IMG/VR virus record: IMGVR_UViG_3300029305_011675
DNA from: a virus
Taxonomy: Duplodnaviria > Heunggongvirae > Uroviricota > Caudoviricetes
DNA: 64,000 nucleotides
Reading direction: 5' to 3' (one strand)
The position numbers were made by a program, and so were the translations under genes. This document shows positions 12,813 through 55,760 of the stretch, piece by piece. Below the pieces are notes generated by a model. It worked only from the letters and a program-made list of their open reading frames with translations. It was not told where the DNA came from and searched no databases. Positions within the stretch are counted from its first letter, which is position 1. Each line of letters opens with the position of its first letter.

Positions 12813-12825
12813 GGAGGTATTCGAT

Positions 12826-37845: not shown

Positions 37846-38277
37846 GTGAAAATGATGAAAAAAATTATTCTTTTATTACTCGTAGGCATTTTGGCAATTT
37901 CGTGTTTTGCAGGTTGTTCTAAAAATAACGAACCAACAGAGAACACACAGTCCCAAGAAGAAGTTGTAATCAACATTGTTTCTGTCCCCGATGCAAGTGC
38001 ATATATTATGGTGGACGGAACGATGTTAAGAACTGGCGATAAATTTCCAGAAAATCCTACTGAAGGCGACATCTTCCAGTGCGAAAATTACAGATATGGT
38101 TATAAAAAGATTTTCAATGCTGAAAAGAATTCATGGATTCCAATAGAAGAAGATGCTTGGACTGTTCATATTATCGGCGAAGAAACAACTTCTTATGATG
38201 ATTGTTTCAAAAAGATAAACGGCAAAAATGTAATCGTTCCAAGTACAACCATAAGCGAAGAAACAACAAAGGCATAA
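37846..38277 (+). CDS. Lipoprotein, hypothetical
   Basis: The signal peptide ends in the lipobox FAGC. Confidence 0.6.
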   Translation: MKMMKKIILLLLVGILAISCFAGCSKNNEPTENTQSQEEVVINIVSVPDASAYIMVDGTMLRTGDKFPENPTEGDIFQCENYRYGYKKIFNAEKNSWIPIEEDAWTVHIIGEETTSYDDCFKKINGKNVIVPSTTISEETTKA

Positions 38278-38280
38278 TAA

Positions 38281-38318
38281 AAACTTCTGCACAAATTTTG
38301 TGCAGAAGTTTCTTTTTC
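38281..38318. terminator. Bidirectional terminator
   Basis: aaacttctgcacaaattttgtgcagaagtttcttttt. Confidence 0.8.
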
Positions 38319-39081
38319 AATATTCAAATTTAGGGATAGGTCTTTCCTTAAAAAGATTCTTGCGGTGTTTTTCATCGATAAGTTCTTTCACCTTAACATC
38401 TTCGCACTTACCAGTACGAATGTATTTATCCAATACTGCATAAGTGAAACCGAGATTATCTTCGTCGGTCTTACCACACAAGTCATCCGTAGGAACTCTG
38501 TCTACAAGATGCTTTGGAAGCAGATGTGCAAGTTCGTAACCAATCTGTTTTAGTTCCGTAACAGTAAAACTCTTCAAAGGGGCAAAATCACCGACGCTAT
38601 CGCCCCATCTTGTAGAATAACCCACCCAATCTTCAGAAAGATTACAGGTGTTTACTACGCGACCATTACAGGACTGGGATACCGCATAAAGAGTAGACAT
38701 ACGAATTCTCGGAGCGAGATTGATGGCAGTCTGTTCACTCACATCCTTATTCATTGCATTCTCAATGCAGTGAATAAGAGAACAATACGGTGCATTGATA
38801 GGTACGGTATAGCATACAATACCAAGACTCTTAACAACATCGTTTACCGCATTCATAGTCTGATTAAGTGCATCCTCGGTTACTTGAACCGTATTTGGCA
38901 TCGTAACACCAATCACCCTATCTTTACCCAATGCTTCTACACACAAGGCGGCGGCGATGGAACTATCCTTACCACCAGAAATACCAATAATGGCATTACA
39001 ACCCTTTCCGTTCTCTTCGAACCACTGACGAATCCACTCAACAATATCATTTTTAACCTTCAAAGCATTAAATTTTTCCAT
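38317..39081 (-). CDS. nadE: NH3-dependent NAD+ synthetase
   Basis: IIGISGGKDSS is the SGGxDS PP-loop. 254 aa, typical for NadE. Confidence 0.85.
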   Translation of the reverse strand: MEKFNALKVKNDIVEWIRQWFEENGKGCNAIIGISGGKDSSIAAALCVEALGKDRVIGVTMPNTVQVTEDALNQTMNAVNDVVKSLGIVCYTVPINAPYCSLIHCIENAMNKDVSEQTAINLAPRIRMSTLYAVSQSCNGRVVNTCNLSEDWVGYSTRWGDSVGDFAPLKSFTVTELKQIGYELAHLLPKHLVDRVPTDDLCGKTDEDNLGFTYAVLDKYIRTGKCEDVKVKELIDEKHRKNLFKERPIPKFEY

Positions 39082-39140
39082 ATAGTTACCTCTTTCCTTA
39101 TTTTATGTAGGTGCTCCCAGATTAACTGGGAGCATTTTTG

Positions 39141-40937
39141 TTAGAAATTGCCATTATTCAAACGAGCACGAATTTCTGCAAGAGAATATTCCTTAACCAT
39201 CACACCATCTTCGAAAATGGTTTCAAGCATATTATCTGCATATTCTTCGCTTTCCATGTCTTCGAAAGTTAAGCAATCCTTGTAAAGAATATCGCCACTT
39301 TCGTCTTCGTAAACATAGCACATTCCCTTCTGGGACTTTTTGAAGTTATTGCCAGCAGAATGGTCGGTCTTGGGGTCCTTGTAAATCTGGGTTTCCTTGC
39401 CATCGATGATAGCATTGGTTGCCTTCAATGCCTGACCGAGAGAGTCACGAGTTACACACTGATAGGTATAAGAACCAATACCAAGAGTTACACAAGTAAC
39501 TGCATACTGCTTATCCATCAATCTCTGATAGATTTCAACTGCTCGCTCATAGGTGATAGCATCACCATAGATAGCACCGATATGCTCATCAAGAACCTTA
39601 AATCCCTTTGCATTGATATAACCACCGAAAATTTCAAACAGAATTTCAACCGTTCCCTTCATTTCGGGAGTAATATAGGTTTTCTTATAATCAACGAATT
39701 CAACAGTTTCACCGTAGCATCCGCCTTCACCGTCATCGGTTTCGGCAATCCATTCGTGTTCGCAAGTAACCTCATAAAGATAATCGCCAATACGAACACG
39801 ATACCAAGTTTCAGAAGTACCATTCCAAGGATATTCGTCTTCTGCCTTCTTCTTAAAGTATGCCTTAATACCGTCTTCGGTAAGACCATCGACTACCATA
39901 TAGTCTTTTGCCTTCAAAGTACCGCAGATAATATCGACAGGGTCGCCAGAGTCGCCACGAATAATAATCTTGCCGTTACGATTCATAATGCTTGCCTTAA
40001 GACGAGGCAAATAGTTGGTGAGCACATTCCAATAATCATAGGTGTCAGATACCATGCTTAAAGGACCAGCAGGAAATACATCTTCAATCAAGTGACGGTA
40101 ACATTCAAACTCGCCCTCACGACCATAAGAGCTCATAACGCTGTGTTCGGTAGAAGGACAACCACGACCAACGACTTCCTTGGTACAATCACAGTTATAG
40201 TACTCTTCCAACCAAGGAATTGCACTAATGGTTGCGGTGTTCACGAAAGAAAGCAGGTGAGCAGCAGAACTCTTGGCAGCACCTTCGATACTGGTCATGC
40301 CTCTCATGGAGAAATCACCACAAGCAGTATTTTCCTTATCATTAAGGCAATCTGCATTCATTGCAGTTTTCATATCGCCATCGACACGAGCAACAGCAGT
40401 CTTGGAAACACTCTTCTCAAATGCATCATTGACAACCTTACGGTATCTCCAAGCAACAGTAGCAGAGTTGATAGGATGCCAAACATTAACAGAGAGATAG
40501 GTTTCCAGATAATTTACAAGCCAACCATAACCAGCAACGGTGTTCTTGAACTCATAAATAGGAGTACGGATGTTTGCAACAGTGCCTTCGGGAAGTGCCT
40601 TAATACGAATAGGCAGATACCCCAAAGAATGCAATGCTTCGAGAATTGTAGTGTCTGCTGCCTGAACACTCATAGTATTCGCAATATAGCGGATGTACTC
40701 TTCCTTAATCTCTTCGATAGGACGCTTAAAGAAATGCTCATTAAAGTACTCAATGAGATACTTCTTTGCAGTACCCTGCAGACCGAAAACAACTGCCTTA
40801 TTGCAATCTTCATATCTGCTCTTTCGAGGTGTCCAGTAACTTACCAGATATTCCAACTTGGGAACATAGGCAAGGTGATGGATGGTCTTATAAAAATCGG
40901 TTAACAACATGGGAATAAGTCTTTCAAATTTACTCAT
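39141..40937 (-). CDS. Nicotinamide phosphoribosyltransferase (NAMPT/NadV-like) with a ~100-aa insertion
   Basis: LTDFYKTIHH corresponds to TDSYKVTHY, IKALPEG to IKAVPEG, DFSMRGMTS to DFGYRGVSS, MVSDTYDYW to VVSDSYD and IIRGDSGDPVD to IIRPDSGNPLD. RBS aaaggag. Confidence 0.8.
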   Translation of the reverse strand: MSKFERLIPMLLTDFYKTIHHLAYVPKLEYLVSYWTPRKSRYEDCNKAVVFGLQGTAKKYLIEYFNEHFFKRPIEEIKEEYIRYIANTMSVQAADTTILEALHSLGYLPIRIKALPEGTVANIRTPIYEFKNTVAGYGWLVNYLETYLSVNVWHPINSATVAWRYRKVVNDAFEKSVSKTAVARVDGDMKTAMNADCLNDKENTACGDFSMRGMTSIEGAAKSSAAHLLSFVNTATISAIPWLEEYYNCDCTKEVVGRGCPSTEHSVMSSYGREGEFECYRHLIEDVFPAGPLSMVSDTYDYWNVLTNYLPRLKASIMNRNGKIIIRGDSGDPVDIICGTLKAKDYMVVDGLTEDGIKAYFKKKAEDEYPWNGTSETWYRVRIGDYLYEVTCEHEWIAETDDGEGGCYGETVEFVDYKKTYITPEMKGTVEILFEIFGGYINAKGFKVLDEHIGAIYGDAITYERAVEIYQRLMDKQYAVTCVTLGIGSYTYQCVTRDSLGQALKATNAIIDGKETQIYKDPKTDHSAGNNFKKSQKGMCYVYEDESGDILYKDCLTFEDMESEEYADNMLETIFEDGVMVKEYSLAEIRARLNNGNF

Positions 40938-41003
40938 AACAATATCTCCTTTTATTTTGGTTTTGTGATATTTTTTACTTAATATCACTTTGATGTTAAG
41001 TAG

Positions 41004-41032
41004 ATTATAGCACAAGATTTTCGATTTGTCAA
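41004..41032 (-). promoter_or_regulatory. Sigma-A promoter, copy 1 of a duplicated ~50-bp promoter region (40986-41036)
   Basis: The reverse complement reads ttgacaaatcgaaaatcttgtgctataat. The second copy is at 46372-46420, upstream of the NADAR-nicotinamidase operon. Confidence 0.7.
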
Positions 41033-41095
41033 GACCTTTTCGATAAAAAAATAAAAAAAAGATGCGATTCTTTTTTAGAACCGCATCATAGTAGA

Positions 41096-41413
41096 TTATT
41101 TTTTGGGAATATCCGCTTCCGCAACCTCTGTTACACTATAAACATCCCAGAACTTCCAATTGTGTTCGAGAGCAATTTCATAGTATTTATTTTCATCTGT
41201 GTCGCAATAATATTTACTAAATTGCTCACCCCTGCATACAAACTCCTTATCGCCAACAACCGCTTGATGTTGAAAAAATACAGGAACAAACATAATTAAA
41301 ATTCCAATTACAAGTGTTAAAGCAGCGAACTGCAACCAATTTAGTTTGCTAAATAGAACAAACCCCGCAAGAATAAGGGTAATTACAATAAATGCAACTA
41401 TGAGAGAAATCAT
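41096..41413 (-). CDS. Membrane protein, hypothetical
   Basis: 105 aa with two TM helices. Confidence 0.5.
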   Translation of the reverse strand: MISLIVAFIVITLILAGFVLFSKLNWLQFAALTLVIGILIMFVPVFFQHQAVVGDKEFVCRGEQFSKYYCDTDENKYYEIALEHNWKFWDVYSVTEVAEADIPKK

Positions 41414-41558
41414 TTCTTCTAACCTCCATATATTTTATAATATAATTATATCACAAAAACTCGGCAATGTCAACTATGCAAATATTTTTTGATAAAAATT
41501 TTCGTATATATTATAATGAATCTGTTAGAAAATTTATATATTCGAAGGAGGATATGTT

Positions 41559-41723
41559 ATGAACAATTTTGCACAGACTAGAAGAGGAGCAAAATTCTTT
41601 GATTGCGATTTCCCTGCAATGGTAAAGGCTGCAAATCGCCTTGCTGAAGCAATCGAAGAATCCAATCGCCTCAAAAAAGAAGAGTTGGAAATGCAAAAAC
41701 AAAAAGACACAAAGCAAGACTAA
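41559..41723 (+). CDS. Small ORF (54 aa) absent from the ORF track
   Basis: RBS gaaggagg 6 nt upstream of the ATG. Translates MNNFAQTRRGAKFFDCDFPAMVKAANRLAEAIEESNRLKKEELEMQKQKDTKQD. A terminator follows directly. Confidence 0.45.
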   Translation: MNNFAQTRRGAKFFDCDFPAMVKAANRLAEAIEESNRLKKEELEMQKQKDTKQD

Positions 41724-41726
41724 TTA

Positions 41727-41756
41727 GAAAACCCGCTTCGGCGGGTTTTTCTATTT
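41727..41756 (+). terminator. Rho-independent terminator
   Basis: aaaacccgcttcggcgggttttt. Confidence 0.8.
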
Positions 41757-41811
41757 GCTTTTTTCATTTCTTTCATATATAATTAAGAAATAACTCAATA
41801 GGAGGGTGTTT

Positions 41812-42522
41812 ATGGGAAATATTTTAGTTTTAGGTGATTGTTTGGAAAATATGAAAAAGATGCAGTCTAAAACAGTCGATTGTGTCATAACGGATATTCC
41901 ATATTTTCAAGTTGTTGATGACGATTGGGATAATCAATGGAAAAATAGCGAAGAATATTTGGAATTTATACATAATTGCATTAAAGAATTCGATAGAATT
42001 ACGAAAGATGATGCTTCAATTATTATGTTTACAGGAAGACAATACAACCGTCACATTGCATTGCTTTTAGATAAATATTTTGAAGAAAGAAGAATAATTA
42101 TCTGGAGCAGAAAAAGAGCATTTAATAATACTCGTGGCAAAGCACTTGCTTCTGGTTATGAACCAATTTGCTATTACACAAAGGGCAATCCTGTTTTTAA
42201 CAACATAAAAATCCAATCCGAATCCAAAAGAAAAGAGTACACAGAGGGAACACTGAAAGATGGTGTCTCTCTTTCGGATGTGTGGAGCGATATCCCAGCA
42301 TTACCGCATAACTCAAAAGAAAAAGTAAAACACTCGTCCCAAAAACCAATTGCTTTAATGGAAAGATGTGTTTTACTTTGCAGTAAAGAAAATGATACGG
42401 TTTTAGACCCTTTTATGGGTAGTGGTTCTACTGGTGTTGCTTGTAAAAACTTAAATAGAACATTTATTGGCATTGAAGCAAACAAAGAACATTTTGAGTT
42501 AGCAAAACACAGAATCCACTAA
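41812..42522 (+). CDS. Orphan beta-class N6A/N4C DNA methyltransferase
   Basis: Motif IV CVITDIPYF, then motif I LDPFMGSGSTGVAC. RBS aggagggtg. Confidence 0.8.
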   Translation: MGNILVLGDCLENMKKMQSKTVDCVITDIPYFQVVDDDWDNQWKNSEEYLEFIHNCIKEFDRITKDDASIIMFTGRQYNRHIALLLDKYFEERRIIIWSRKRAFNNTRGKALASGYEPICYYTKGNPVFNNIKIQSESKRKEYTEGTLKDGVSLSDVWSDIPALPHNSKEKVKHSSQKPIALMERCVLLCSKENDTVLDPFMGSGSTGVACKNLNRTFIGIEANKEHFELAKHRIH

Positions 42523-42995
42523 AAACTATCTATTATTCGCTTCATGTTAAAACCAATAACAATACCAGAAACAACAAGAAAAACAAAAGTTATAAACAAT
42601 ATAAAAACCGAATTATTGCTATAATCGGCAGCGAGAAGGACATCATATGTTCCTCTTGTTGCCGTATTTTTTTCGAAAAAATTCATTATCAGACCCAACA
42701 ACGAATTCATAAAAGTAGAAATCGTAAATGCACAACAAAAAATTTGAACATATAGTTGTTTTATAAACACCAAAATACAAGATATGGTTAGCGGAACAAA
42801 AATACTACTTAATGCAACGAGAGGAATGTATTTTACATCAACATAACCAGACACAAAACTTTCTGTGCCAAAACCTCCATCAACAAAATTGCCATTGCAA
42901 ATATTCAAAAACAAGAAGTGCGAACCCTCGTGAATAAAAAGATTTAACACTAATCCTGAAACTAAACAAAATATACTAATTAAGACTTTTTTCAC
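42519..42995 (-). CDS. Membrane protein with HExxH (putative zincin-like metalloprotease, DUF3267-like)
   Basis: LFIHEGSHFLF lies within the hydrophobic segments. Confidence 0.4.
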   Translation of the reverse strand: MKKVLISIFCLVSGLVLNLFIHEGSHFLFLNICNGNFVDGGFGTESFVSGYVDVKYIPLVALSSIFVPLTISCILVFIKQLYVQIFCCAFTISTFMNSLLGLIMNFFEKNTATRGTYDVLLAADYSNNSVFILFITFVFLVVSGIVIGFNMKRIIDSF

Positions 42996-43113
42996 ATTTT
43001 ATACCTCCTCTTTTAAAACAATTATATCAAAAAACAAACACTTTGTCAATCTAAAATGTTGACAACGGTCTCTCAATATGTTATAATAAAGAAAAAAACA
43101 GGAGGAAAGCACT

Positions 43114-43548
43114 GTGAAATTTAGAACAGGTTTTGTAACAAATAGTTCCAGTTCGTCTTTTGTAATCGCATACAAAAAAGAAGATTATTCCGAAGAAGAA
43201 CTGAAAAAATATCCAATTCTTAAAATGTATGACCATATTGTAGACCACATTGCAACCATTAAAGGCGAAGACTGGTACGATTCGGAGGGTCGAGTTTTCC
43301 GAACCATTGAAGAACTCAATGAACATTATGCTAATTCTTGGTGGAATGAAGACGATGTTGAAAACTTCAACCCAGAAACTCTTCCACCTTATGAACTCGA
43401 AGAATATCAAATGATTAAGAAAGCACTTGAAGAAGGAAAACATGTTGTTGTGAAAGATGTAAAATATCACGACGAAGTTGCCAATGAATTTATCCAAGAG
43501 ATTCTCAAAGACCATCACTTTGAACTTCTCAAAGAATGCGAAGGATAA
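43114..43548 (+). CDS. Hypothetical protein; GTG start
   Basis: RBS aggagg. 144 aa, acidic. Confidence 0.5.
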   Translation: MKFRTGFVTNSSSSSFVIAYKKEDYSEEELKKYPILKMYDHIVDHIATIKGEDWYDSEGRVFRTIEELNEHYANSWWNEDDVENFNPETLPPYELEEYQMIKKALEEGKHVVVKDVKYHDEVANEFIQEILKDHHFELLKECEG

Positions 43549-43660
43549 TGATATTATTCACAATCTCAAACAATGCCATTGGATTAATACATTGTGTGGG
43601 CAAAAAAATTCATCATTCACTTTGTTATATAATATATTTTAAAATAATGGAGGTGTTATT

Positions 43661-43930
43661 GTGAAAGAAAAAGAGATTTTTATCATAGAGCATTTATTTG
43701 ACTTGCAAGGTTGCGGTCGTGTTGAATTTGGAGTAGAAGAAATCGGTTATTTTGAAAACGAAGACGATGCGAAATCATATGTAGAAAAGTATTCCTGTTG
43801 CAAAGTATATGATAAGACAATGCGATATGGAAAGTTGAGATATAGACGAGAAAGTATCCCCACAAAACTAACTCTCAACACCCCACCTGATTTCAAGGGG
43901 ATGGGTTTTAAAGAACAAAAAGAAGGTTGA
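43661..43930 (+). CDS. Hypothetical protein; GTG start
   Basis: RBS ggagg. A terminator follows at 43921-43952. Confidence 0.45.
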   Translation: MKEKEIFIIEHLFDLQGCGRVEFGVEEIGYFENEDDAKSYVEKYSCCKVYDKTMRYGKLRYRRESIPTKLTLNTPPDFKGMGFKEQKEG

Positions 43931-43961
43931 TTTTCATCAACCTTCTTTTTCTATGCCCAAA

Positions 43962-44801
43962 TTACAAATCGACTTTAGTAATTAACGGATGTTCTTCTGT
44001 AAAAATACTATTAGTTGTATAGATATTTTCGACCAAATCAGACTTAATCAAGTCGCCAGTGAGAATTGTGTTTTCGCAATGAGTGATGTAAAGACCGATA
44101 TTGGTCGCCCCACACTCTCGGAGTGCCTTTGCAGAATAATAGAATGTTCCACCCTTGGAACAGATATCATCGACAATAAGAACTCTCTTGCCATCAAGTA
44201 ACTCTTTTCCGACAACCTCAAGACCAAGGATTTTAGCAGTGCTCCAATCACGGTTTTTATTTGCATAAGCAACAGGATAAGCATGCTTATTTTTCGTACT
44301 TCTGCCGTGCATTGCTTTGCCGTTGATGATATCTGCATATCTCTTACAACTTCCTTCATCGGGGAAGAAAATCACATCAGGATTATACATCTCAATAGCA
44401 TTATTGATATATTTACCAACATCAAGTTGCACAACACGGTCAATAAGTGCCAAAGAAACACTGGAATGTGCATCAAGAACAAAAACTTTTTCAAAGTTCA
44501 TCATGTTGATTAACTGGCAGAAATACTTTAAAGTAAAAACTTCAGATATTTCCTTCGTTCTATCCATTCTTGCATTAGGAATATAATACATATATAGATA
44601 AAACTTTGCATCTCTCGGAGCATGCTCTCTCAAATGCATTACAACATTAAAAAGAAGCATAGTTTCGTCGTTATTTTCATAATACCATTCAAATGCAAAT
44701 TCGTTTTCGTTTACGATTTCAGCAAAAAATTCATTCTTAATTGCCATGGTGCCATCTGGGAATCTACCCATTTCAACAATATTTTCATTAAGTTTAATCA
44801 T
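43962..44801 (-). CDS. Divergent ribose-phosphate pyrophosphokinase (Prs)-like phosphoribosyltransferase-fold protein
   Basis: RFPDGT corresponds to Prs FsDGE, VIFFPDEGSCKRYA is also Prs-like, and VLIVDDICSKGGT is the PRPP-binding loop. The canonical Prs N-terminal motif is absent. RBS aaggagtg. Confidence 0.6.
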   Translation of the reverse strand: MIKLNENIVEMGRFPDGTMAIKNEFFAEIVNENEFAFEWYYENNDETMLLFNVVMHLREHAPRDAKFYLYMYYIPNARMDRTKEISEVFTLKYFCQLINMMNFEKVFVLDAHSSVSLALIDRVVQLDVGKYINNAIEMYNPDVIFFPDEGSCKRYADIINGKAMHGRSTKNKHAYPVAYANKNRDWSTAKILGLEVVGKELLDGKRVLIVDDICSKGGTFYYSAKALRECGATNIGLYITHCENTILTGDLIKSDLVENIYTTNSIFTEEHPLITKVDL

Positions 44802-44802
44802 C

Positions 44803-45027
44803 TTAATCGCACTCCTTATCAAAGTTTTCTTCGAAAAATTGTGTCATCAAATTAGTCTTAAACTCTTCAATAACACAACGAATATGGTCTGTGTCAGCAG
44901 AACAACTAATGTCTCCCTGTTGCTTATATACATATTCCTTTCCCCTAAACACAAGGACAAAAGTATATGTCTCCCAGTCAACAGACTTGCAAAGGACATC
45001 TTTATATTCCAGATTATAACTATCCAT
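44803..45027 (-). CDS. Small hypothetical protein
   Basis: 74 aa. Ends 2 nt before the Prs-like start. Confidence 0.4.
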   Translation of the reverse strand: MDSYNLEYKDVLCKSVDWETYTFVLVFRGKEYVYKQQGDISCSADTDHIRCVIEEFKTNLMTQFFEENFDKECD

Positions 45028-45032
45028 TTTCT

Positions 45033-45362
45033 TTACCTCGCAACAGTTGTATTTTTCAAAAAATCACGAAATACATTTTCGAATTTTTCTGCAGTTTGAA
45101 ACAAAAACTTAATTGCTTCGTCATATCCTTCCTTACAATTTATATATGTTTCGGTAGCGATTGGAAACCCATTATGGGTACACCAAGCAACATATATTTT
45201 AGACTGACCATTTATGAATATTAAATTTTCGTTTCTCATTTCAAACAATAGGTATAGGTTTTCTGTCATGTGAACTTTGAATTCCAACCCCTTATATTCC
45301 CTATTATTATTCATTGAACAAAATTGGTCATAAGAAGGGATTGTGATTTTTAAATTATTCAC
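45033..45362 (-). CDS. Hypothetical protein
   Basis: 109 aa. Tightly packed within the operon. Confidence 0.45.
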   Translation of the reverse strand: MNNLKITIPSYDQFCSMNNNREYKGLEFKVHMTENLYLLFEMRNENLIFINGQSKIYVAWCTHNGFPIATETYINCKEGYDEAIKFLFQTAEKFENVFRDFLKNTTVAR

Positions 45363-46344
45363 AGTTAGCCACCTTAACCTGACAGGATTTCATAGTTTCG
45401 ATTGCTGCATTATGCTTTTCAGGAGTTACACCCGCACAACAGTTTTCATAAACCACAACCTCTACCTCTGGCAGAAATGCTTTAACAAGCATAACATTGG
45501 ATACAACACAGATGTCAGTGCAAACACCGACAAACTTAACAACCAACTTCTTACCAATTGCAGCGAGTTCCTTCTCTTTCGTTACCAAATAGTTTGCGAG
45601 TTCAACACTACCAAAAGTAGGTTTCTTAATGCAAATGGCATTAGCGACATAAGGACGAAGTTCATCTACAATTTCCCATCCCTTTTCACCATCAAAACAG
45701 TGAGGAACAGGAAGATTACGACCTTCCTGACTATCCATATAGGTGTCTGCATAGTGAGTATCGTAAGTGAAGATAACTTTGCCACCATTTGCACGATGCT
45801 CTTTAATGCACTTTGCGACAGTAGGAATAACATTCTTCGTTTCCTCGTTACCAAGGACACCTTTGGTGAAGTCATTTTGCATATCGACAACAACAAGAAT
45901 TTCTTCTGCATTGTCAACGATTTCTTTTCTCACCTTACAAAGCAGATAACCGAGAGTATTCTTGCCCTTAATATTTGCACATTTAAAACAAGAACAATCG
46001 CCCCAATAATTATCGTGCCAAGCGTTGCCTTCAACCAACCACTCATTACCAGTGTGAATAAGGCGCTCCCTCAATTCGGGAATAGCGAACTTTGCACGAA
46101 GACAGGTAAGCATAACCTCATCTTTAACATTCTCCCAGTCAGCACGAAGTTTTACAGAACGACCTGCTCGTTTAGCAAGAGAAGGAGTTGTAAGGTTAGC
46201 AATATTTTGTCTCTCGTTTACATCAAGAGTTTTTGCTGCTTGGAAGGCATGTTCCACAGTAGGATAAACAATGCCCTCAAACTCAATCTTACTCTCATAG
46301 AAATTGCTCAAAAAATCATATAAACCGTCAAACTTTTCAATCAT
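45355..46344 (-). CDS. NADAR (YbiA/DUF1768) domain fused to a nicotinamidase/isochorismatase-family (PncA-like) domain
   Basis: The N-terminus FLSNFYESKIEFEGIVYPTVEHAFQAAK is the NADAR signature. The C-terminus has ILVVVDMQNDF and the catalytic Cys in GVCTDICV. Starts at the second ATG (RBS aaaggag). Confidence 0.75.
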   Translation of the reverse strand: MIEKFDGLYDFLSNFYESKIEFEGIVYPTVEHAFQAAKTLDVNERQNIANLTTPSLAKRAGRSVKLRADWENVKDEVMLTCLRAKFAIPELRERLIHTGNEWLVEGNAWHDNYWGDCSCFKCANIKGKNTLGYLLCKVRKEIVDNAEEILVVVDMQNDFTKGVLGNEETKNVIPTVAKCIKEHRANGGKVIFTYDTHYADTYMDSQEGRNLPVPHCFDGEKGWEIVDELRPYVANAICIKKPTFGSVELANYLVTKEKELAAIGKKLVVKFVGVCTDICVVSNVMLVKAFLPEVEVVVYENCCAGVTPEKHNAAIETMKSCQVKVANCE

Positions 46345-46388
46345 AATGTACATCTCCTTTTACTTATTATCATTTTGATGTTAAGTAG

Positions 46389-46417
46389 ATTATAGCACAA
46401 GTTTTTTGATTTGTCAA
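46389..46417 (-). promoter_or_regulatory. Sigma-A promoter, copy 2 of the duplicated promoter region (46372-46420)
   Basis: The reverse complement reads ttgacaaatcaaaaaacttgtgctataat, near-identical to 40986-41036. Confidence 0.7.
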
Positions 46418-46539
46418 GAGTTTTAAGACAAAAAATAAAAATTATTTTCAATTTGATATTAAGTCCATTTTTGTGTTGACATTAGCACTTGTTTATGATA
46501 TAATATATGTAGAAATATAACCACAAAGGAGAATATATT

Positions 46540-47067
46540 ATGTCAAAGATTGAGATTAACAGAGTTTGGTGTATGCCGAACAAAAATACATTCGATATTA
46601 AACCAGTAAAAGAACTTATTGAAAAATATATTGGGAAACTACCCCCAAACCCAACCATTGTAGACCCTTTTGCCAACAAAAATAAAATTGCAACCATTAC
46701 AAATGATTTAGACCCTCAATACGGAACAGATTATAATATGGATGCAACTGACTTTTTAAAAATTTTGGACGACAATTGTGCAGACATGATACTATACGAC
46801 GCACCGTACAGCCCTCGCCAAGTATCAGAAGTATACAAAAAATTTAATATGAGTGTAAATATGGAAACTACACAAGCTTCTTATTGGTCGAAACAAAAAG
46901 AACAAATTAGTCGCCTTGTAAAAAAAGGAGGGTATGTAATAACTTGTTCTTGGAATAGTGGTGGTATTGGTAAAAAATATGGTTTCGAAATCGTGGAAAT
47001 TTTGATGGTGCCTCACGGCGGTTGGCACAATGACACAATTATTACAGTAGAAAGGAAGATTAAGTAA
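46540..47067 (+). CDS. Small putative adenine-specific methyltransferase-like protein
   Basis: Motif-I-like IVDPFANKNKIA is followed by motif-IV-like ILYDAPYSP. 175 aa. Tentative. Confidence 0.35.
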   Translation: MSKIEINRVWCMPNKNTFDIKPVKELIEKYIGKLPPNPTIVDPFANKNKIATITNDLDPQYGTDYNMDATDFLKILDDNCADMILYDAPYSPRQVSEVYKKFNMSVNMETTQASYWSKQKEQISRLVKKGGYVITCSWNSGGIGKKYGFEIVEILMVPHGGWHNDTIITVERKIK

Positions 47068-47872: not shown

Positions 47873-48307
47873 TTATTCGAGTGCATCTGGGATTCCATCA
47901 CCATCGGTATCTCCGCAAATATGGTCAACATCGTCAGCACTTACCATGCCAGAACCAACCATTTCACGACCCGCCACTCCACGTTCTCTTCTACGCTTTT
48001 CAACTAATTCGCTAATAAAGTGATGGACATCTTTCGGTTTTTTAATATTTTTAAGTTCCAATACTCTATCTGTTTGGTCTGCAGAATACAATGTAACTGT
48101 TCCTACTCCAAAAATTTTCTGCCAAAAAGTTCTTTTTGTTTTGATATCCAAAATTCTGTATAAAAGAATTTCGTCAGAATTTGTTGTGAAGAAACCCTTA
48201 TCTAAATAAAGTCTCTCTTCGTCAACTGCATACTTTGTAAAAGAAATTGGCATCCCCATGTGTCTCTTTCTGTCTTTCCATAAAATTGATTTTTCACATT
48301 TGCTCAT
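47873..48307 (-). CDS. Bacterial PH (bPH_2/YdbT-like) domain protein
   Basis: DEILLYRILDIKTKRTFWQKIFGVGTV fits the bPH_2 pattern. Overlaps the 3' end of the C5-MTase gene by 14 nt. Confidence 0.45.
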   Translation of the reverse strand: MSKCEKSILWKDRKRHMGMPISFTKYAVDEERLYLDKGFFTTNSDEILLYRILDIKTKRTFWQKIFGVGTVTLYSADQTDRVLELKNIKKPKDVHHFISELVEKRRRERGVAGREMVGSGMVSADDVDHICGDTDGDGIPDALE

Positions 48308-49502
48308 TATTATCTGCTCCTTTTAATTTTATTTTTAGCAATTGTTCTGCTATATAAACAATGACATCAACATTGGCACTGTTACCAAGTTGCTTATATG
48401 CCATGTGTTCATTTTTGTTTAATATGTAATTTTCTGGGAAAGATTGCAATCTTGCCGCTTCTCTTGGAGTAATTCTCCTCAAATATTTTCCGACAATAGA
48501 TGTTTGCACTATGGCAACGAGAGCAGGAAAAGTGCTTGTTCTTTTACACCTTATTCCCGATTGTCTCAATTGTATAAGTGTTTCATAAACACTATCTGCG
48601 GTGTCTCCCGCTTGCCATTCAAGTTTCCTATCTCTCTTTTTGAATTTATTAACTTCAAAAAGTTGCATCCAAGCGTCTAAATATTCTTTGTTGTTTAAAT
48701 AAAATTCTCTATTTTTTTGACAATAGTCCTGTTTCCACTTTGGCAAATTTGTATAATCATAATCTTGACCAAATTCGTCAATCAAAATTGGTGAGATTAC
48801 TTTTTTATTATGCTTCCTAAAGTGTTTAATTAAAGCATCCCATGCTCTTAATACATCTCCTTCATATTCACTTATTGCATATTCGGAATAATTATCTATA
48901 TGTCTGTCCAAAACGGAAAATACACTTGTGCTAGGATAATTTTCTTTATTTGGAACATCGATTTCGATATATTCTCCTTCATAATAATCTCGATGAATAC
49001 CAACAATAAAAATACGTTCTCTATTTTGTGGTACTCCTATATGATGAGGAGAAACGATTAGTGGGTCTTTTGTTAAAACATAACCAAGGTCACTTAAATG
49101 CTCTTTAATTACCCTAAATGTATTTCCATCATCGTGATTTACAAGGTGCTTTACGTTTTCTAAAATAATATACTTTGTTTTGTGATATTTTAAAATTCTT
49201 TCAATCTCAAAAAACAAAGTTCCTCTTGTATCAACAAAACCCTTCTTATGTCCAGCATTTGAAAATGGCTGACAAGGAAAACCTGCACACAAAATATCAT
49301 GTTTGGGAATATCTTCTGCTTTCACATCGAATATGTTGCAGTCAGAACTCATGTTGAAATTTTCTTCATAAGTTTCGATTGCATATTTATCTATTTCTGA
49401 TGCAAAAACACATTTGCCTCCAAGTTTTTCAAGTGCTAAATGAAAAGCGCCAATACCAGCAAACAGGTCGATAAAAGTAAAAGAATTATTCAATTTTATC
49501 AC
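48294..49502 (-). CDS. dcm: DNA (cytosine-5)-methyltransferase
   Basis: Motif I is FIDLFAGIGAF, motif IV CAGFPCQPFS and motif VI ENV. Confidence 0.9.
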   Translation of the reverse strand: MIKLNNSFTFIDLFAGIGAFHLALEKLGGKCVFASEIDKYAIETYEENFNMSSDCNIFDVKAEDIPKHDILCAGFPCQPFSNAGHKKGFVDTRGTLFFEIERILKYHKTKYIILENVKHLVNHDDGNTFRVIKEHLSDLGYVLTKDPLIVSPHHIGVPQNRERIFIVGIHRDYYEGEYIEIDVPNKENYPSTSVFSVLDRHIDNYSEYAISEYEGDVLRAWDALIKHFRKHNKKVISPILIDEFGQDYDYTNLPKWKQDYCQKNREFYLNNKEYLDAWMQLFEVNKFKKRDRKLEWQAGDTADSVYETLIQLRQSGIRCKRTSTFPALVAIVQTSIVGKYLRRITPREAARLQSFPENYILNKNEHMAYKQLGNSANVDVIVYIAEQLLKIKLKGADNNEQM

Positions 49503-49602: not shown

Positions 49603-52395
49603 TTATTCAAATGAAAATTCGCTAAAATCCATTCCCATACATTCAGTCCAAAAATCATACGACGTTCCGTGATATGTTTGTACAAGGAAGAATAAATTAA
49701 ACCAACTTCCTGTATCTTCTGATGTTTGCCCAGTTTCAGATGACACAGATTCAATCATGGTAGTTCTTGCTTCTTCTGCGAAGTTTTTAACAATTTTCAT
49801 AATCCATTTTGGCATTCTCGAATATTCAACTTTTATATCAAATTTAATATCGAGATATTCATTGTCTGGTATCTGATTATCTCCAACAATAACATCCATC
49901 ATATATTGTGTTAGTTTTTCAGAAATTTGAGCATCAGTCATTGTTTGTTCAAGACTGTTATCTTCTTCGTAAATAAGAATTGGACTTCCAAATAAACTTC
50001 CAATTGGAGACCATACGATTAAGAAATCTTTTTCTACTGTATCATCCTTAAATGCATGACCCTCAACAGACATATTTTGAATTTGCTTTGTTGGCATTTC
50101 ACCAATACCAAGTTCTCCAAAAATATCGCCAATAACAATCAATTGTTCATCTGTATACCCAAGTTTTCTTGCTGCTTTTTCGACATTACTTCTTACATCG
50201 AGGAAATTAGACCAGTCATCGTATCCGTAAAACATAGACTGATACCAAATCTTTGCTACATCCTCATTTGTAAAACCTCTTTGAGTCATTCTAAATGCGG
50301 CACGACTCAATAATATACCGTTAATGTGGCAATCATCGTTGCTCCAATTTTCTCCGAGATAAGTATCTGGATATTTTGTGCCCCAAAGTTCATTACCAGA
50401 AGCACCAGTTGCATCTCTTAATGGTTCTCCCAACCATTCAGCCATTTGCCAATCATTATCAATTAGGCACCCAAAAATATCGGCATATGCCTCATTGATG
50501 GAAGAAAAATTCATTGAACTACCGTCCGCCGTAATCGCATCGAAAACACCGTGAGTATACTCGTGTCCAATTACATCCACACCTGCACAAAGTGCATACT
50601 TAAATGCTGGTGCATCTCCACAGATGAAAAATCTAAAATCTCCGCCAAGATATGAGGCATTATTTTTAGCAGCAGGAGAATTTACAACACATTTTATTTC
50701 TTTACCTTTTCCATCAAAAGAAGTTCTTCCAAGAGTATCTTTATACCAGTCATATGTCGTGATAAAATTCTTATATGCAGAAACACCCTGACCAGCATCT
50801 TTGAAAGTGTTTTTTGTACTCGAAATTGGTAAACCAAACTGCTTTTTTAAAACGACTATCATCATTGGTGCATCATCACCCCAAAAGATTTCATCACCGA
50901 TATCAGTAATATTGTGTGAACCATCAATGATTTTGATATTTCTTCCCGTATCTTCAAGGAAATACAAAGCCGCTTTATTTGCTTTAAACACTTGGTCTTC
51001 ACCGAACACATCCTCGCCATAAGCGGTTGTCATAGACCCCAAACCAGTCGAAATTTCAACATCTGCTACTACTTTTTTGGAGTCAATGTCTAAATAAACA
51101 GTTTTGATAACAATTTTATCATTTTCTTGTCCTAAAGCAGTACACTTATATACAAGATGTGCTTTTTCTTCTGACACGAAAATACCTTTTGTGTGTTCTG
51201 TGATTTTGATTGTAATGCCATAATGAGAAGACAATACAGAATTAATTTCATCTTCGGTCATTTCACCGTTAGTGCCGACATTGATATTTCTAACAATATT
51301 TAAGTTAATTGAATCCAAATGATTAGAAGCGTTAGTTGTCATTGTAACAGTTCTACCAAAGACAGGCAAATCGTTGTAGTATTGTTCAACCATAAAACAT
51401 TTACCTTCTAGTGCCGTCTGAACATCACAAACTTTAAATTCTACTTCATCACCTATATTCATAAGTTGTCTATACTTATTAAGTACTTTTATAGCATCAT
51501 CAGCAGAAGAAACGATTGTAGAATTGAAATTACCATCAATACTATCGATAATATCATCCTCGTTGTAAGTGATAACCATATTGTTGTTTCCGATGCCTTT
51601 TTCAATATCTTCGGGTGTTAACACAAAGATATCTTCATCATCAATTACGTCTGTCTTTATAACGGTAATATAATAATCTTTTTTACCAGTTCCTAAACCG
51701 TGTTTTACTTCTGCCGTTAATTTAACAACAGCATTTGCATTACTCGGTCTATTTACCTCTCCTATTGTATTAAGCACATTAGGATTATCACTTGACCATT
51801 GGATTTTTTCCACATCGCCCTCGCCGACTTCAATTTCTTGCGGAATTACAATGTTGTCAGTTACATAATCACAATAGTTTGTATCGACATATTCAAAAGG
51901 TTGGTCGCTCAAAATATTTTGTAGATATTCTGTTGCTACATTATTTTGCCACTTAAATAAACCAAAGATACCTGCACCAATTAAGATTAAAGATAAGAAA
52001 ATCCATAAACCAATGTGCTTTTTCTTTTTCTTTCCTTTAACCTTTTTATCCTTCTTTGTCTTTTTAGGTTGTTCAGGCGTCATAGGAGGAGTTTGTGGTG
52101 TTGGCGGTACTGGTGGTACTGGTGGAATAGGAATTTGTGTGGGCGGTTGCAGCGGTGCGATAGGTTGTTGTTGCATATACTGCGGATTATTGTATTGCCC
52201 ATAAACCCCACCATTTTGTGTTGGTTGAGTTGGAGGATTTGGATTTCGATATCCATTATTTTGTCCACCAATTACAAATTGAGGATTTGTGTTTTGTGTA
52301 TTTTGCATAGGGACATTATTCATGTTTTGTGGCATAGGTCTTCCCTGATAATTATTATCAGTCGGAATCCCGTTACCAAATTGATTGTTGTCCAT
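49603..52395 (-). CDS. Membrane-anchored M4 (thermolysin-like) zinc metallopeptidase with a Pro/Gln/Asn-rich N-terminal tail
   Basis: VIGHEYTHGVFD is the HExxH motif, followed by INEAYADIFG (the third zinc-ligand Glu). One TM helix. RBS aaaaggag. Confidence 0.8.
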   Translation of the reverse strand: MDNNQFGNGIPTDNNYQGRPMPQNMNNVPMQNTQNTNPQFVIGGQNNGYRNPNPPTQPTQNGGVYGQYNNPQYMQQQPIAPLQPPTQIPIPPVPPVPPTPQTPPMTPEQPKKTKKDKKVKGKKKKKHIGLWIFLSLILIGAGIFGLFKWQNNVATEYLQNILSDQPFEYVDTNYCDYVTDNIVIPQEIEVGEGDVEKIQWSSDNPNVLNTIGEVNRPSNANAVVKLTAEVKHGLGTGKKDYYITVIKTDVIDDEDIFVLTPEDIEKGIGNNNMVITYNEDDIIDSIDGNFNSTIVSSADDAIKVLNKYRQLMNIGDEVEFKVCDVQTALEGKCFMVEQYYNDLPVFGRTVTMTTNASNHLDSINLNIVRNINVGTNGEMTEDEINSVLSSHYGITIKITEHTKGIFVSEEKAHLVYKCTALGQENDKIVIKTVYLDIDSKKVVADVEISTGLGSMTTAYGEDVFGEDQVFKANKAALYFLEDTGRNIKIIDGSHNITDIGDEIFWGDDAPMMIVVLKKQFGLPISSTKNTFKDAGQGVSAYKNFITTYDWYKDTLGRTSFDGKGKEIKCVVNSPAAKNNASYLGGDFRFFICGDAPAFKYALCAGVDVIGHEYTHGVFDAITADGSSMNFSSINEAYADIFGCLIDNDWQMAEWLGEPLRDATGASGNELWGTKYPDTYLGENWSNDDCHINGILLSRAAFRMTQRGFTNEDVAKIWYQSMFYGYDDWSNFLDVRSNVEKAARKLGYTDEQLIVIGDIFGELGIGEMPTKQIQNMSVEGHAFKDDTVEKDFLIVWSPIGSLFGSPILIYEEDNSLEQTMTDAQISEKLTQYMMDVIVGDNQIPDNEYLDIKFDIKVEYSRMPKWIMKIVKNFAEEARTTMIESVSSETGQTSEDTGSWFNLFFLVQTYHGTSYDFWTECMGMDFSEFSFE

Positions 52396-52560
52396 AACGA
52401 TATCTCCTTTTTTATGTAATTTCATATATTATACAATATTTTTGCAACTTTGTCAACAAAATAGAAACTGAACAAATATTAGAAAAAGTTGCATTATTTT
52501 TTGATTTTTTATGTAAACCGATATATTATATAATAAAATATTCCTTTTGGTGGTGTTTTT

Positions 52561-52888: not shown

Positions 52889-53875
52889 ATGGTTTTAGTA
52901 ACTGGCGGAACTGGTTATATTGGTTCACATACAGCAGTTGAATTACTTAATGAGGGAAAAGAAGTTTTGATTGTTGACAACCTTTCTAATTCCTCGAAAA
53001 GTGTAATAGACGACATTGAAGCAATTACCAATAAAAGGCCTTATTTTATCGAAATGGATATAAGAAATGAAAAAGAGATGAAGGAACTGTTTAAATTTTT
53101 TAATTTTGAATCAGTTGTACACTTTGCGGGACTAAAAGCAGTAGGAGAATCTGTTGAAAAACCGTTAGATTATTACGATAACAATGTCGGTGGCACAATC
53201 AACCTTCTTAAAACAATGAGTGAAAACAACTGTAATAAAATCGTTTTTTCCTCAAGTGCAACAGTATATGGAAATCCAGACATTGTCCCAATCGACGAAA
53301 ATGCACTTTTAAGAACAACAAATCCATACGGAACAACAAAGTTACATATCGAAACAATGCTAAAAGATATTTGTGCAGCAAATCCGCAATTCTCCGCAAC
53401 ACTATTGAGATATTTCAACCCCGTTGGCGCACATGCAAGCAGATTGCTTGGAGAAAACCCCAATGGCATTCCTAATAACTTAATGCCAAGAATTATCGAT
53501 GTAGCACTTGGAAAAGCTGACAAAATCACAGTTTTTGGCACAGACTATCCAACAATAGACGGAACTGGTGTTAGAGATTATATTCATGTAGTTGATTTAG
53601 CAAAAGGTCATATAAAAGCACTTGATAGAATGGGAAATCTCAAAGTATATAATTTGGGAACAGGAACTGGTTATTCTGTTTTAGATATCATCAACACATT
53701 TAACAGGGTAAATCATCTAAATGTAGAAAAGGTTATCTGTGACCGTCGCCCAGGAGACATTGCACAGTGTTATGCAGACCCAATGAAAGCACAAAAAGAA
53801 CTTGGATGGAAAACAGAATTATCTATTGAAGAAATGTGCAAAAGTGCTTGGGAATATGCAAAAAATAGAAACTAA
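52889..53875 (+). CDS. galE: UDP-glucose 4-epimerase
   Basis: VLVTGGTGYIGSH is the Rossmann motif, with YxxxK in an SDR-family context. 328 aa. Confidence 0.9.
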   Translation: MVLVTGGTGYIGSHTAVELLNEGKEVLIVDNLSNSSKSVIDDIEAITNKRPYFIEMDIRNEKEMKELFKFFNFESVVHFAGLKAVGESVEKPLDYYDNNVGGTINLLKTMSENNCNKIVFSSSATVYGNPDIVPIDENALLRTTNPYGTTKLHIETMLKDICAANPQFSATLLRYFNPVGAHASRLLGENPNGIPNNLMPRIIDVALGKADKITVFGTDYPTIDGTGVRDYIHVVDLAKGHIKALDRMGNLKVYNLGTGTGYSVLDIINTFNRVNHLNVEKVICDRRPGDIAQCYADPMKAQKELGWKTELSIEEMCKSAWEYAKNRN

Positions 53876-53922: not shown

Positions 53923-54277
53923 ACGAATGGATATCTCGTCTAACAACCTCACCTGTACTATCCATAACCCACGAATACAATTGTGCAGTTACAACATCGC
54001 CCTTTTCGACACCCCAATGTTGCGGAGCGAACATGCCTCCGCCTTCGGAAGTTATCGTTTTTTCTAATCCATACTCTTCGCTTTTAACGGTTATCTCAAT
54101 GATGTAATGATGTGTCGTAGCAAACCAATGTTTCCTGTTGACATTGGTAACAACAACATCAATATCTTTCCAGTACAAATGTGGTTGTTCTGGCCGTTCC
54201 ACGGGTTCTAAATCACACCCAACAAGAGAAAAGACAATCAATACTCCGAGCAGAATGCAAACAAACCGTTTAATCAT
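53915..54277 (-). CDS. Lipoprotein, hypothetical
   Basis: Starts at MIKRFVCILLGVLIVFSLVGC (lipobox). Last gene of the Nudix operon. Confidence 0.55.
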   Translation of the reverse strand: MIKRFVCILLGVLIVFSLVGCDLEPVERPEQPHLYWKDIDVVVTNVNRKHWFATTHHYIIEITVKSEEYGLEKTITSEGGGMFAPQHWGVEKGDVVTAQLYSWVMDSTGEVVRRDIHSLK

Positions 54278-54986
54278 CGAGTTTCTTCTTTCGATAAACT
54301 TTTGCAGGACGATATGCCATACCATAGACAGTCTTATCGGTTTCTTCAATACGACTGTCCATAGTGCGCTTAAAGTTACTGATAGGTTTATTTAAAATGG
54401 TCTCAAAAGTTCCCTGTAAAGAACCAACAGTAAACTCCTCTTCTTCAAACTCGAAACCGATATCAGAATAAAACAACTTACCACGAACTCTTTCAAGCGC
54501 CTTTGTGATAATTTTCCCGTGGTCAAAAGCAAGGTCGTCAAAAGTTAAAGTACGAAGTGTATCAATACCAATCAAGGTGTTATCATCAAGAATCTCAAAC
54601 CACTCACCAGCATGAGTTCCATACTGCTTTGTAAAAGTATGAGGTTTCATAATTCCAACATATGCCGTAGAAATAACACGCCAACGACTATCACGGTCAA
54701 TACCATCGAAGGTGTAAAGTTGCTCAAGGTAATACTGGTCATAGCCAGTCTTTTCAAAAACCTTTCTGCGAGCAACTTCCTCAATAGTTTCGTCAATGCC
54801 GACGAAACCACCAGGAAGAGACCACTTACCCTCATAAGGTTCTGTATCTCTTCGAATCAAGAGAACACGAAGACTTTTCTTGCTCTTCTGTCTTTTGTCA
54901 ATGATTTTATCGTGAACCTTAAACATAACGACGTCTGCCGTTACCGAAGGTCTCTCATAACTCATAAAATTTTTATTATCGCTCAT
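54270..54986 (-). CDS. NUDIX hydrolase (ADP-ribose pyrophosphatase-like) with a C-terminal extension
   Basis: The Nudix box is GKWSLPGGFVGIDETIEEVARRKVFEKTG. Confidence 0.8.
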   Translation of the reverse strand: MSDNKNFMSYERPSVTADVVMFKVHDKIIDKRQKSKKSLRVLLIRRDTEPYEGKWSLPGGFVGIDETIEEVARRKVFEKTGYDQYYLEQLYTFDGIDRDSRWRVISTAYVGIMKPHTFTKQYGTHAGEWFEILDDNTLIGIDTLRTLTFDDLAFDHGKIITKALERVRGKLFYSDIGFEFEEEEFTVGSLQGTFETILNKPISNFKRTMDSRIEETDKTVYGMAYRPAKVYRKKKLDD

Positions 54987-55431: not shown

Positions 55432-55760
55432 AGTGTTTCACCACTATCTTCGAAAACAACAGAGGATTTCGCCTGTTCTTCGGTTACTGTAATAATTTCT
55501 CCTTTGATGTTATAAATAACATAAGAACCTACAGGCGGATACATACGACAGGCAGAATTCGGTTTTACATAACCAATCTTTTCTTGGTCACCGCAAATAC
55601 CATTGCAAGAGCAATATCCGCTGTTTTGATATTCACAATCGCAATTTCGACCACGCTTGCACATCACATCAAAACCATCGTAATCTTCCTCGCTATTGAT
55701 TCTGAATGCCTTTGCTGGCATAATGACCTTACAGTTTACACTTTTTCTATTTTCAAACAT
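55428..55760 (-). CDS. Cys-rich hypothetical protein
   Basis: 110 aa with 10 Cys. First gene of the operon, driven by the promoter at ~55790-55820. Confidence 0.45.
   Translation of the reverse strand: MFENRKSVNCKVIMPAKAFRINSEEDYDGFDVMCKRGRNCDCEYQNSGYCSCNGICGDQEKIGYVKPNSACRMYPPVGSYVIYNIKGEIITVTEEQAKSSVVFEDSGETL

Follow-up and report, generated by a model that had tools for sequence, protein, structure and literature searches.

A NADAR-nicotinamidase operon and an altered-pocket Namat on a viral contig: a probable deamidated variant of the NARP1 pathway

We examined a 64,000-nucleotide stretch of the IMG/VR record IMGVR_UViG_3300029305_011675 (Caudoviricetes), called the window throughout, which carries genes for a NADAR-nicotinamidase fusion, an Adps-family enzyme, a Namat homologue with an altered substrate pocket, the NAD+ synthetase NadE and an NrtR-type regulator. 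In our view these genes probably form an ADP-ribose-inducible, deamidated variant of NARP1 that is spread over three co-regulated operons. Depleting NAD+ is one of the defences that bacteria use most often against viruses, and the principal viral response known so far is NARP1. The evidence for the proposed variant consists of the gene identities, the signature residues, the layout of operators and promoters, and a covariation between the type of the Namat pocket and the genes that surround it.

In the proposed mechanism, NAD+ would be cleaved to ADP-ribose and nicotinamide, and ADP-ribose would bind the NrtR repressor and thereby free 25-bp operators on three promoters. The PncA domain would convert nicotinamide into nicotinic acid, Adps would make ADP-ribose pyrophosphate (ADPR-PP) from ADP-ribose and ATP, the variant Namat would join nicotinic acid and ADPR-PP directly to deamido-NAD (NaAD), and NadE would amidate NaAD to NAD+. 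The NADAR domain fused to PncA would probably add further ADP-ribose by cutting N-glycosidic ADP-ribose adducts. We infer these enzymatic steps, the effector of NrtR and a role against NAD+-depleting defences. The step assigned to the variant Namat is the simplest reading of the product of PncA, the substrate of NadE and the slot that PncB and NadD occupy in classical operons (see below); PncA yields nicotinic acid, and NadE amidates NaAD. An earlier reading of the window made from its letters alone (the sequence-only reading) had proposed that the module handles ADP-ribose and nicotinamide and is not plain salvage dependent on phosphoribosyl pyrophosphate (PRPP). This part is supported by sequence, signature residues and gene context; what that reading had missed is a nicotinic acid route, to which the nicotinamidase points jointly with NadE and the changed pocket of Namat. 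The literature searched held nothing that links NARP1, Namat or Adps with nicotinate, NadE, PncA or NaAD.

Enzymes of the module and the altered Namat pocket

By homology, the NAMPT-like gene of the window is a Namat homologue. Its product is 47% identical to the crystallised SPbetaL1 Namat, and a PDB search matched it to 9w5x/9w5w at 1.8e-128 and to 9ke8 at 3.6e-105, with NAMPTs at about 1e-50, which supports the suggestion that it is a NARP1-type enzyme. The catalytic core was kept (F209, R212, H265, R327 and D329, for Phe189, Arg192, the catalytic His, Arg306 and Asp308 of the reference), and Arg41 of SCL was present. The SCH motif, GSYTYQCVTRD at residues 488-498, had the right length, an aromatic residue at position 3 and the TRD ending, with Cys at position 7, which is usually aromatic. 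Most relatives with the same pocket types carried an SCH insertion of 9-40 amino acids (aa).

The substrate pocket itself was altered at two positions, where Ala235 of the window protein corresponds to SPbetaL1 Asp215 and Ser262 to SPbetaL1 Ala242. In the SPbetaL1 enzyme, the nicotinamide amide is held by a hydrogen bond from Asp215, with Ala242 in the wall of the same pocket, and the D215A exchange made NAD+ synthesis 8.1-fold lower (PMC12774641). The equivalent residue of human NAMPT, Asp219, defines substrate specificity (PMC7096376), with D219S listed as a switch of substrate affinity and D219A as a loss of activity (PMC4919578). Since both pocket residues are replaced, the window protein should not carry the label of a nicotinamide-specific Namat. 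In phage Phass-1, where a nicotinamidase lies beside the Prs-like and NAMPT-like genes, the position of Asp215 is likewise Ala. Namats are named below by their residue at this position (Asp-, Glu-, Ala- or Ser-type).

An insertion of about 78 aa follows the catalytic RxDSGD strand of the window Namat (residues ~347-424, 39870-40100), and a domain search with it gave no match. It had been described as atypical, which it is not: many relatives have it, both Asp-type (L005, L115-L121) and Ala-type (L195). In two other relatives the Namat gene was irregular. That of L007 (3151-5444) is interrupted by ~0.8 kb of what could be an intron, an intein or a homing element, and that of L006 (9986-11500) has an in-frame stop near its end; as genetic code 15 is in use in Phass-1, stop codons may be reassigned in some carriers.

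Judged from its sequence, the Prs-like protein belongs to the Adps family and not to housekeeping Prs. It was 34.7% identical to SPbetaL1 Adps over 97% of the protein and scored 147 bits against this enzyme versus 50 bits against E. coli Prs, and all 83 Prs-like proteins found beside Ala/Ser-type Namats were likewise nearer to Adps than to Prs. The match to phrog_619 in PHROGs reached 4e-70, and the best match to a Prs in PDB only 1.6e-8. The alignment to the 317-aa B. subtilis Prs stopped at Prs residue 285 with 7 query residues remaining, so that the C-terminal module of Prs is missing, and loss of this alpha11-alpha12 module of PRPS is the defining signature of the Adps family (PMC13586617). 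The sequence-only reading had placed the loss at the Prs N-terminus; the N-terminal half is divergent yet alignable with Prs, and the recognisable loss is C-terminal. Residues K182, R78/R81, H112, D148 and D211-D212 were invariant in the alignment with SPbetaL1 and Phass-1. K182 corresponds to the catalytic Lys on the beta-hairpin (SPbetaL1 K162, ICP1 K185, where the ICP1 position was mapped by motif and spacing only), and the others to the acceptor residues Arg/His/Asp/Asp-Asp. SPbetaL1 Adps converts ADP-ribose and ATP into ADPR-PP and gave no product in a PRPP-synthetase assay (10.1101/2024.02.11.579819).

The first gene of the operon was confirmed as a fusion of a NADAR/YbiA domain to a PncA-type hydrolase, with Pfam matches to PF08719 at 3e-24 (86.5 bits, cutoff 35.1) and to PF00857 at 1e-31. 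In PDB, the two domains matched YbiA (2b3w, 3e-23) and the P. horikoshii nicotinamidase (1ilw, 1.8e-12), the best solved relative of the isochorismatase domain. Residues D154/K241/C279 and D195/H197/H215 of the PncA domain, which we take to be the nicotinamidase triad and the metal site, respectively, were invariant in the alignment. In the NADAR domain, WLVEG aligned with the LVEH of E. coli YbiA (2b3w); members of the YbiA subfamily are recognised by a Glu in their last strand, and every NADAR assayed so far removes ADP-ribose from guanine in DNA (PMC11125620). By analogy, a role of the NADAR domain in supplying ADP-ribose is plausible. The fusion occurred in ~20 protein clusters down to 44% identity; NADAR also occurred as a standalone gene, placed between the Namat and NadE genes in several lineages of the Ser and Ala types and beside a few Asp-type modules. 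The NADAR-seeded viral loci (L009-L034) all had standalone NADARs with no NAD module nearby, and are therefore uninformative on the fusion; a DarT-like partner of NADAR was not seen among the genes examined. At fusion residues ~112-125 (45970-46010), where E. coli YbiA has GDGGHGKG, the domain carries a short Cys-rich insertion, GDCSCFKCANIKG, which may be a small metal-binding loop. Proteins of 450 aa with tandem double PncA domains on a bacterial chromosome (P0018-type) were set aside as unrelated to the NAD module. NadE, which lies where it had been reported, matched PF02540 at 5e-47 and phrog_11189 at 9e-59; its SGGxDS P-loop and the lack of a glutaminase domain mark it as NH3-dependent.

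The two small open reading frames (ORFs) between the fusion and the Adps gene had no matches in Pfam or PHROGs. For the 109-aa protein, 28 homologues of similar length were found, down to 27% identity. The 74-aa protein had 12 homologues and was 50% identical to the N-terminus of a 181-aa protein that takes the same position in the relative L195, and in the 168-aa protein P0145 a 74-aa-type N-terminus is fused to a 109-aa-type C-terminus. The idea that the two ORFs together represent a split 181-aa protein was rejected, as the 74-aa part alone matches it. The predicted structure of the 74-aa protein (predicted local distance difference test score, pLDDT, of 85) had no meaningful fold match in PDB or BFVD. 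This family was also found away from NAD genes (L283).

Namat pocket type and neighbouring genes

The covariation of pocket type and neighbouring genes was tested on ~220 viral and bacterial loci, with PncA and NadE neighbours scored within 10 kb at viral loci. Viral loci had been collected by similarity to Namat, PncA or NADAR, and the Namat-seeded subset served as the unbiased set, in which unique sequences were counted; the bacterial set of 80 genome loci was independent of the viral one. At viral loci with an Asp-type (57) or Glu-type (20) Namat, PncA or NadE was found within 10 kb in none of 77 cases, while Adps, PncA and NadE stood together at 55 of the 59 viral loci of the Ala/Ser type. 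The same split was observed among the unique Namat-seeded viral sequences (6/6 Ala/Ser-type vs 0/70 Asp/Glu-type, p=4.6e-9) and among the unique sequences of bacterial genome loci (28/29 vs 0/51, p=1e-20). Taking viral and bacterial loci together, PncA and NadE lay beside none of 128 Asp/Glu-type Namats. The second pocket exchange, Ala242Ser, separated the two groups perfectly (45/45 Ala/Ser-type vs 0/74 Asp/Glu-type sequences), and His187, Gly213, Ser239 and Ile240 also switch between them. The gene order of the module differed among lineages. Neighbour-joining put the Ala and Ser types into one cluster, with the window Namat as a deep branch.

A Namat hit was missing at 33 of the 80 PncA-seeded IMG/VR loci, which have PncA and mostly also NadE. 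Two of these 33 were inspected, and both proved to be complete classical Preiss-Handler operons on viral contigs: NrtR-PncA-NadD-PncB-NadE in L047 (9217-13074) and PncA-PncB-NadD-NadE in L088 (9989-13640). A description of such a viral operon as a phage NAD+ pathway was not found in the literature. Because these operons carry PncB and NadD between PncA and NadE, Adps and the variant Namat appear to occupy the slot that turns nicotinic acid into NaAD. At the Asp/Glu-type Adps-Namat loci of bacterial genomes (L201-L280), NrtR was next door in 33 of 51 cases; chromosomal NARP1 is the probable identity of the prs-nadV operons under NrtR control that posed a puzzle in 2008.

Transcription units, operators and the carrier element

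The four-gene operon proposed by the sequence-only reading was borne out by its Pfam domains, its promoter and its terminator-like hairpin, and by an independent gene call that gave the same four genes on the source contig, ENA ERZ27248351 k141_1860850 (214,927 bp). The true start codons are at 46344 for the fusion and at 44801 for the Prs-like gene. The NAMPT-like gene was found at the predicted place, 3 kb and seven genes from the Adps gene; a true Adps gene is expected to have a Namat homologue no more than about 10 genes away. It had been put under the same promoter, which is wrong because three opposite-strand genes separate the two units, together with two terminator-like hairpins and a perfect promoter, P2, that is its own. 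The two promoters are alike in type: the P1 and P2 regions are near-identical copies with the same operator in both. Coordinates are collected in the table. Between 41004 and 46504 (5.5 kb) there are six promoters of the form TTGACA-17-TGnTATAAT, all of them perfect (12/12), an unusually uniform set that includes divergent pairs at ~43021-43087 and 46389-46504.

The 64 kb hold four copies of the 25-bp palindrome ACWTWWTATCA-N3-TGATRTTAAGT, against a chance expectation of 0.06, and they sit on three perfect sigma-70 promoters. Relatives of ~95% identity keep both palindromes upstream of the fusion gene. The third of these promoters drives an operon that ends in a gene with matches to PF00293 (Nudix-like, 6e-13) and PF21906 (the NrtR winged helix, 9e-10). 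It had been taken for a Nudix ADP-ribose pyrophosphatase; its winged helix and its degenerate Nudix box, GGFVGIDETIEEVARRKVFEKTGY, with RK for the expected RE and EK for the expected EE, identify it as an NrtR-type regulator instead. In vitro, ADP-ribose releases NrtR from DNA; most published NrtR sites have 21 bp and the core GT-N7-AC, and prs-nadV operons under NrtR control have been on record since 2008 (PMC2330246). By analogy, ADP-ribose would induce the module of the window through NrtR. Two further genes of the P3 operon, for a 110-aa protein and a nucleoside 2-deoxyribosyltransferase-like protein, share operon and operator with the regulator and hence belong to the same regulon; both were absent from L195.

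The relative L195 has a fusion 54% identical and a Namat 71% identical to the window proteins, and carries on one strand NrtR, the fusion, the 181-aa protein, Adps, an SPFH protein, an Ala-type Namat and NadE, with the NrtR homologue directly upstream of the fusion gene. The 25-bp operator pattern of the window was not in L195, which has a different duplicated promoter-operator of its own ahead of NrtR and of Namat. A PARG-like gene (PF10021) lies upstream at 1-531, and the SPFH/Band 7 gene inside the NAD operon spans 12495-13439. This SPFH gene, with the SPFH and VWA genes of the window, hints at a wider conserved gene set.

The carrier of the module (~215 kb, from gut Clostridia) is perhaps a phage of very large size, perhaps an element akin to a plasmid. 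A search by DNA similarity with window positions 38000-47000 found nothing among GenBank phages, and the closest genomic relatives were metagenome-assembled genomes of Oscillospiraceae and Ruminococcus. Related modules are common on IMG/VR viral contigs, from gut and rumen, and present in phage Phass-1.

Table. Positions of genes, transcription units and regulatory sites in the window
Feature	Position	Strand	Remarks
Four-gene operon 1	43962-46344	minus	co-directional, head to tail: NADAR-PncA fusion, 109-aa ORF, 74-aa ORF, Prs-like gene
NADAR-PncA fusion	45355-46344	minus	329 aa; YbiA-type NADAR (Glu105) fused to PncA-type nicotinamidase
109-aa protein	45033-45362	minus	small family
74-aa protein	44803-45027	minus	invariant Cys/His/Asp motif ISCSADTDHIRCVIEE
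Adps-family ADP-ribose pyrophosphokinase (predicted)	43962-44801	minus	279 aa; K182; DDIC at 211-214; without Prs C-terminal module
Promoter P1	46417-46389	minus	serves NADAR-PncA operon; 12/12 TTGACA-17-TATAAT, extended -10 with TG
Operator O1	46362-46386		ACTTATTATCA-TTT-TGATGTTAAGT; just downstream of P1 -10
Operator O2	46440-46464		second copy, 2 mismatches; upstream of P1 -35
Terminator-like hairpin	43950-43917	minus	ends operon 1, 3' of last stop codon
Second unit (Namat-like gene and NadE)		minus	own promoter P2
Namat-like ADPR transferase (predicted)	39141-40937	minus	598 aa from real ATG; Ala235, Ser262
NH3-dependent NAD+ synthetase NadE	38317-39081	minus	254 aa; SGGKDS P-loop at residue 35
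Promoter P2	41032-41004	minus	12/12 consensus; serves Namat-NadE operon
Operator O3	40977-41001		ACTTAATATCA-CTT-TGATGTTAAGT; downstream of P2 -10
Terminator-like hairpin	41087-41061		precedes P2
Terminator-like hairpin	38281-38311		3' of NadE
Promoter P3	55824-55796	minus	perfect promoter, overlapped by O4; operon ending in NrtR-type gene
Operator O4	55794-55818		overlaps P3
110-aa ORF	55428-55760		P3 operon, ahead of NrtR-type gene
Nucleoside 2-deoxyribosyltransferase-like gene	54997-55431		PF05014; P3 operon, ahead of NrtR-type gene
NrtR-type regulator (predicted)	54270-54986	minus	last gene of P3 operon
DNA methyltransferases, at least four	9387-10337, 41806-42522, 46540-47067, 48294-49502		
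Mu/Tn7-like transposition genes	10644-14433		
Pilin-like proteins, two	469-1776, 4521-5519		
Cation efflux protein	32155-33042		
VWA protein	34691-36049		
M4 peptidase	49603-52425		
GalE	52889-53875		
SPFH protein	57457-59109		
S-adenosylmethionine synthetase	60120-61175		

Alternative readings and known systems

Several observations weigh against a deamidated, counter-defence variant of NARP1. Because the Ala and Ser types cluster in the tree, the covariation may reflect one ancient lineage split and not repeated events. The D215A exchange lowers, and does not abolish, the activity of SPbetaL1 Namat, so that an Ala-type enzyme might still take nicotinamide; with Cys at SCH position 7 and SCH insertions in most Ala/Ser-type relatives, one cannot count on ADPR-PP being preferred to PRPP. 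The 25-bp operator is without the GT-N7-AC core of most NrtR sites. PHROG scans extended to ~30 more ORFs of the 64 kb gave no hit to capsid, portal, terminase or tail genes, and the same operon, NrtR-Adps-PncA-Namat-NadE, is chromosomal in several Clostridium species, for which reason the module may serve housekeeping recycling. In such a recycler the same chemistry would return ADP-ribose and nicotinamide from ordinary NAD+ consumers, on a plasmid-like element and with no part in counter-defence. It would fit the chromosomal Clostridium operons and the missing capsid and terminase genes, and NrtR regulons are classical circuits of NAD homeostasis. We nevertheless regard it as rather unlikely, given that related modules are found on so many viral contigs and in Phass-1, that canonical NARP1 is a proven counter-defence, and that its known accessories (the Macro phosphatase and RyDEP) act against defence systems. 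NARP3 (PnuC and NadR) was rejected, as neither gene type is involved.

Two further explanations retain a known chemistry. Adps and Namat might run canonical NARP1 on ADP-ribose and nicotinamide, with PncA and NadE merely reinforcing the Preiss-Handler pathway of the host through its PncB and NadD. The intact catalytic core and largely intact adenine clamp of Namat, the residual activity of SPbetaL1 D215A and the occurrence of phage PncA and NadE in classical Preiss-Handler operons agree with this, yet it leaves unexplained why PncA and NadE are restricted to altered-pocket Namats; PncA would moreover compete with Namat for nicotinamide, and the operons are without PncB and NadD. We therefore hold it to be improbable. 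Still less probable is a salvage route in which the Prs-like protein makes PRPP, the NAMPT-like protein forms nicotinic acid mononucleotide (NaMN) or nicotinamide mononucleotide (NMN), and host NadD and the NadE of the element finish the synthesis. The Pfam domain names Pribosyltran and NAPRTase point that way, Namat accepts PRPP in vitro if no ADPR-PP is supplied, and the clamp is imperfect at SCH position 7. The truncated Prs-like protein is, however, far nearer to Adps than to Prs, SPbetaL1 Adps made no PRPP-synthetase product, Namat is a far better match to the NAMPT-like protein than NAMPT is, and both the ADP-ribose-sensing type of the regulator and the ADP-ribose-releasing NADAR indicate an ADP-ribose input. 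A more ambitious form of the deamidated pathway is a self-contained ADP-ribose-sensing circuit, with two activities that would be new: a nicotinate ADP-ribose transferase that forms NaAD from nicotinic acid and ADPR-PP in a single step and so bypasses NaMN and NadD, and a NADAR N-glycosidase that harvests N-linked ADP-ribose, for example from DNA bases that carry ADP-ribose or from immune signals with an N-glycosidic ADP-ribose. Such a circuit would turn damage or signals from host defences back into cofactor; we offer it tentatively, as an idea that is doubtful in its full extent.

If the deamidated NARP1 variant is real, the formation of NaAD from nicotinic acid and ADPR-PP would be a new reaction, and the pathway would have a second, widespread form on gut and rumen viral contigs and several Clostridium chromosomes. 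The contrast between Asp215/Ala242 and Ala-or-Ser215/Ser242 would then provide a simple annotation rule for hundreds of 'NAMPT' genes. The NrtR operators would suggest that the pathway is switched on by the very product of the host attack, and NADAR would join the Macro and RyR domains as recurring accessories of NAD+ rebuilding operons.

Among the systems already described, NARP1 (Osterman et al. 2024, 10.1101/2024.02.11.579819) is similar in its linked Adps- and Namat-family genes, and in ADP-ribose as the presumed input; the adenine-clamp motif of Namat is largely kept but departs at SCH position 7. Unlike in NARP1, the window Namat has Ala for Asp215 and Ser for Ala242 and its predicted product is NaAD instead of NAD+, nicotinamidase and NadE are obligatory partners, and the genes are split over two operons; where the published two-enzyme pathway makes NAD+ from ADP-ribose, nicotinamide and ATP, the changed pocket and the partners PncA and NadE argue for a four-step deamidated route. 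In NARP1-AP, with the Macro phosphatase Adpp (10.64898/2026.01.28.702374), and in RyDEP (10.64898/2026.05.28.727677), an accessory embedded in the operon also acts on an ADP-ribose derivative and feeds Adps; here this accessory is a YbiA-type NADAR, a predicted N-glycosidase fused to PncA, and not a Macro or RyR domain. The NADARs that reverse guanine ADP-ribosylation (PMC11543638, PMC11125620, PMC11257639) share the YbiA fold, the conserved Glu and the expected product, free ADP-ribose, with that of the window, which differs in its fusion to a nicotinamidase and in its setting, an operon for rebuilding NAD+. The NrtR regulons, including nrtR-prs-nadV (Rodionov et al. 2008, PMC2330246), likewise have a Nudix-like winged-helix repressor that probably regulates itself, palindromic operators that overlap NAD gene promoters, and a target pair of Prs-like and NadV-like genes. 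The regulon of the window, in contrast, lies on a mobile element, has the operator core TATCA-N3-TGAT instead of GT-N7-AC, and includes the NADAR-PncA fusion and the deoxyribosyltransferase-like gene among its targets. With the Preiss-Handler pathway (PncA-PncB-NadD-NadE), finally, the module shares its first and last enzymes and, as proposed, the intermediate NaAD. It has Adps and the variant Namat in place of PncB and NadD, so that the ribose-phosphate-AMP part of the cofactor would come from ADP-ribose and not from PRPP and ATP.

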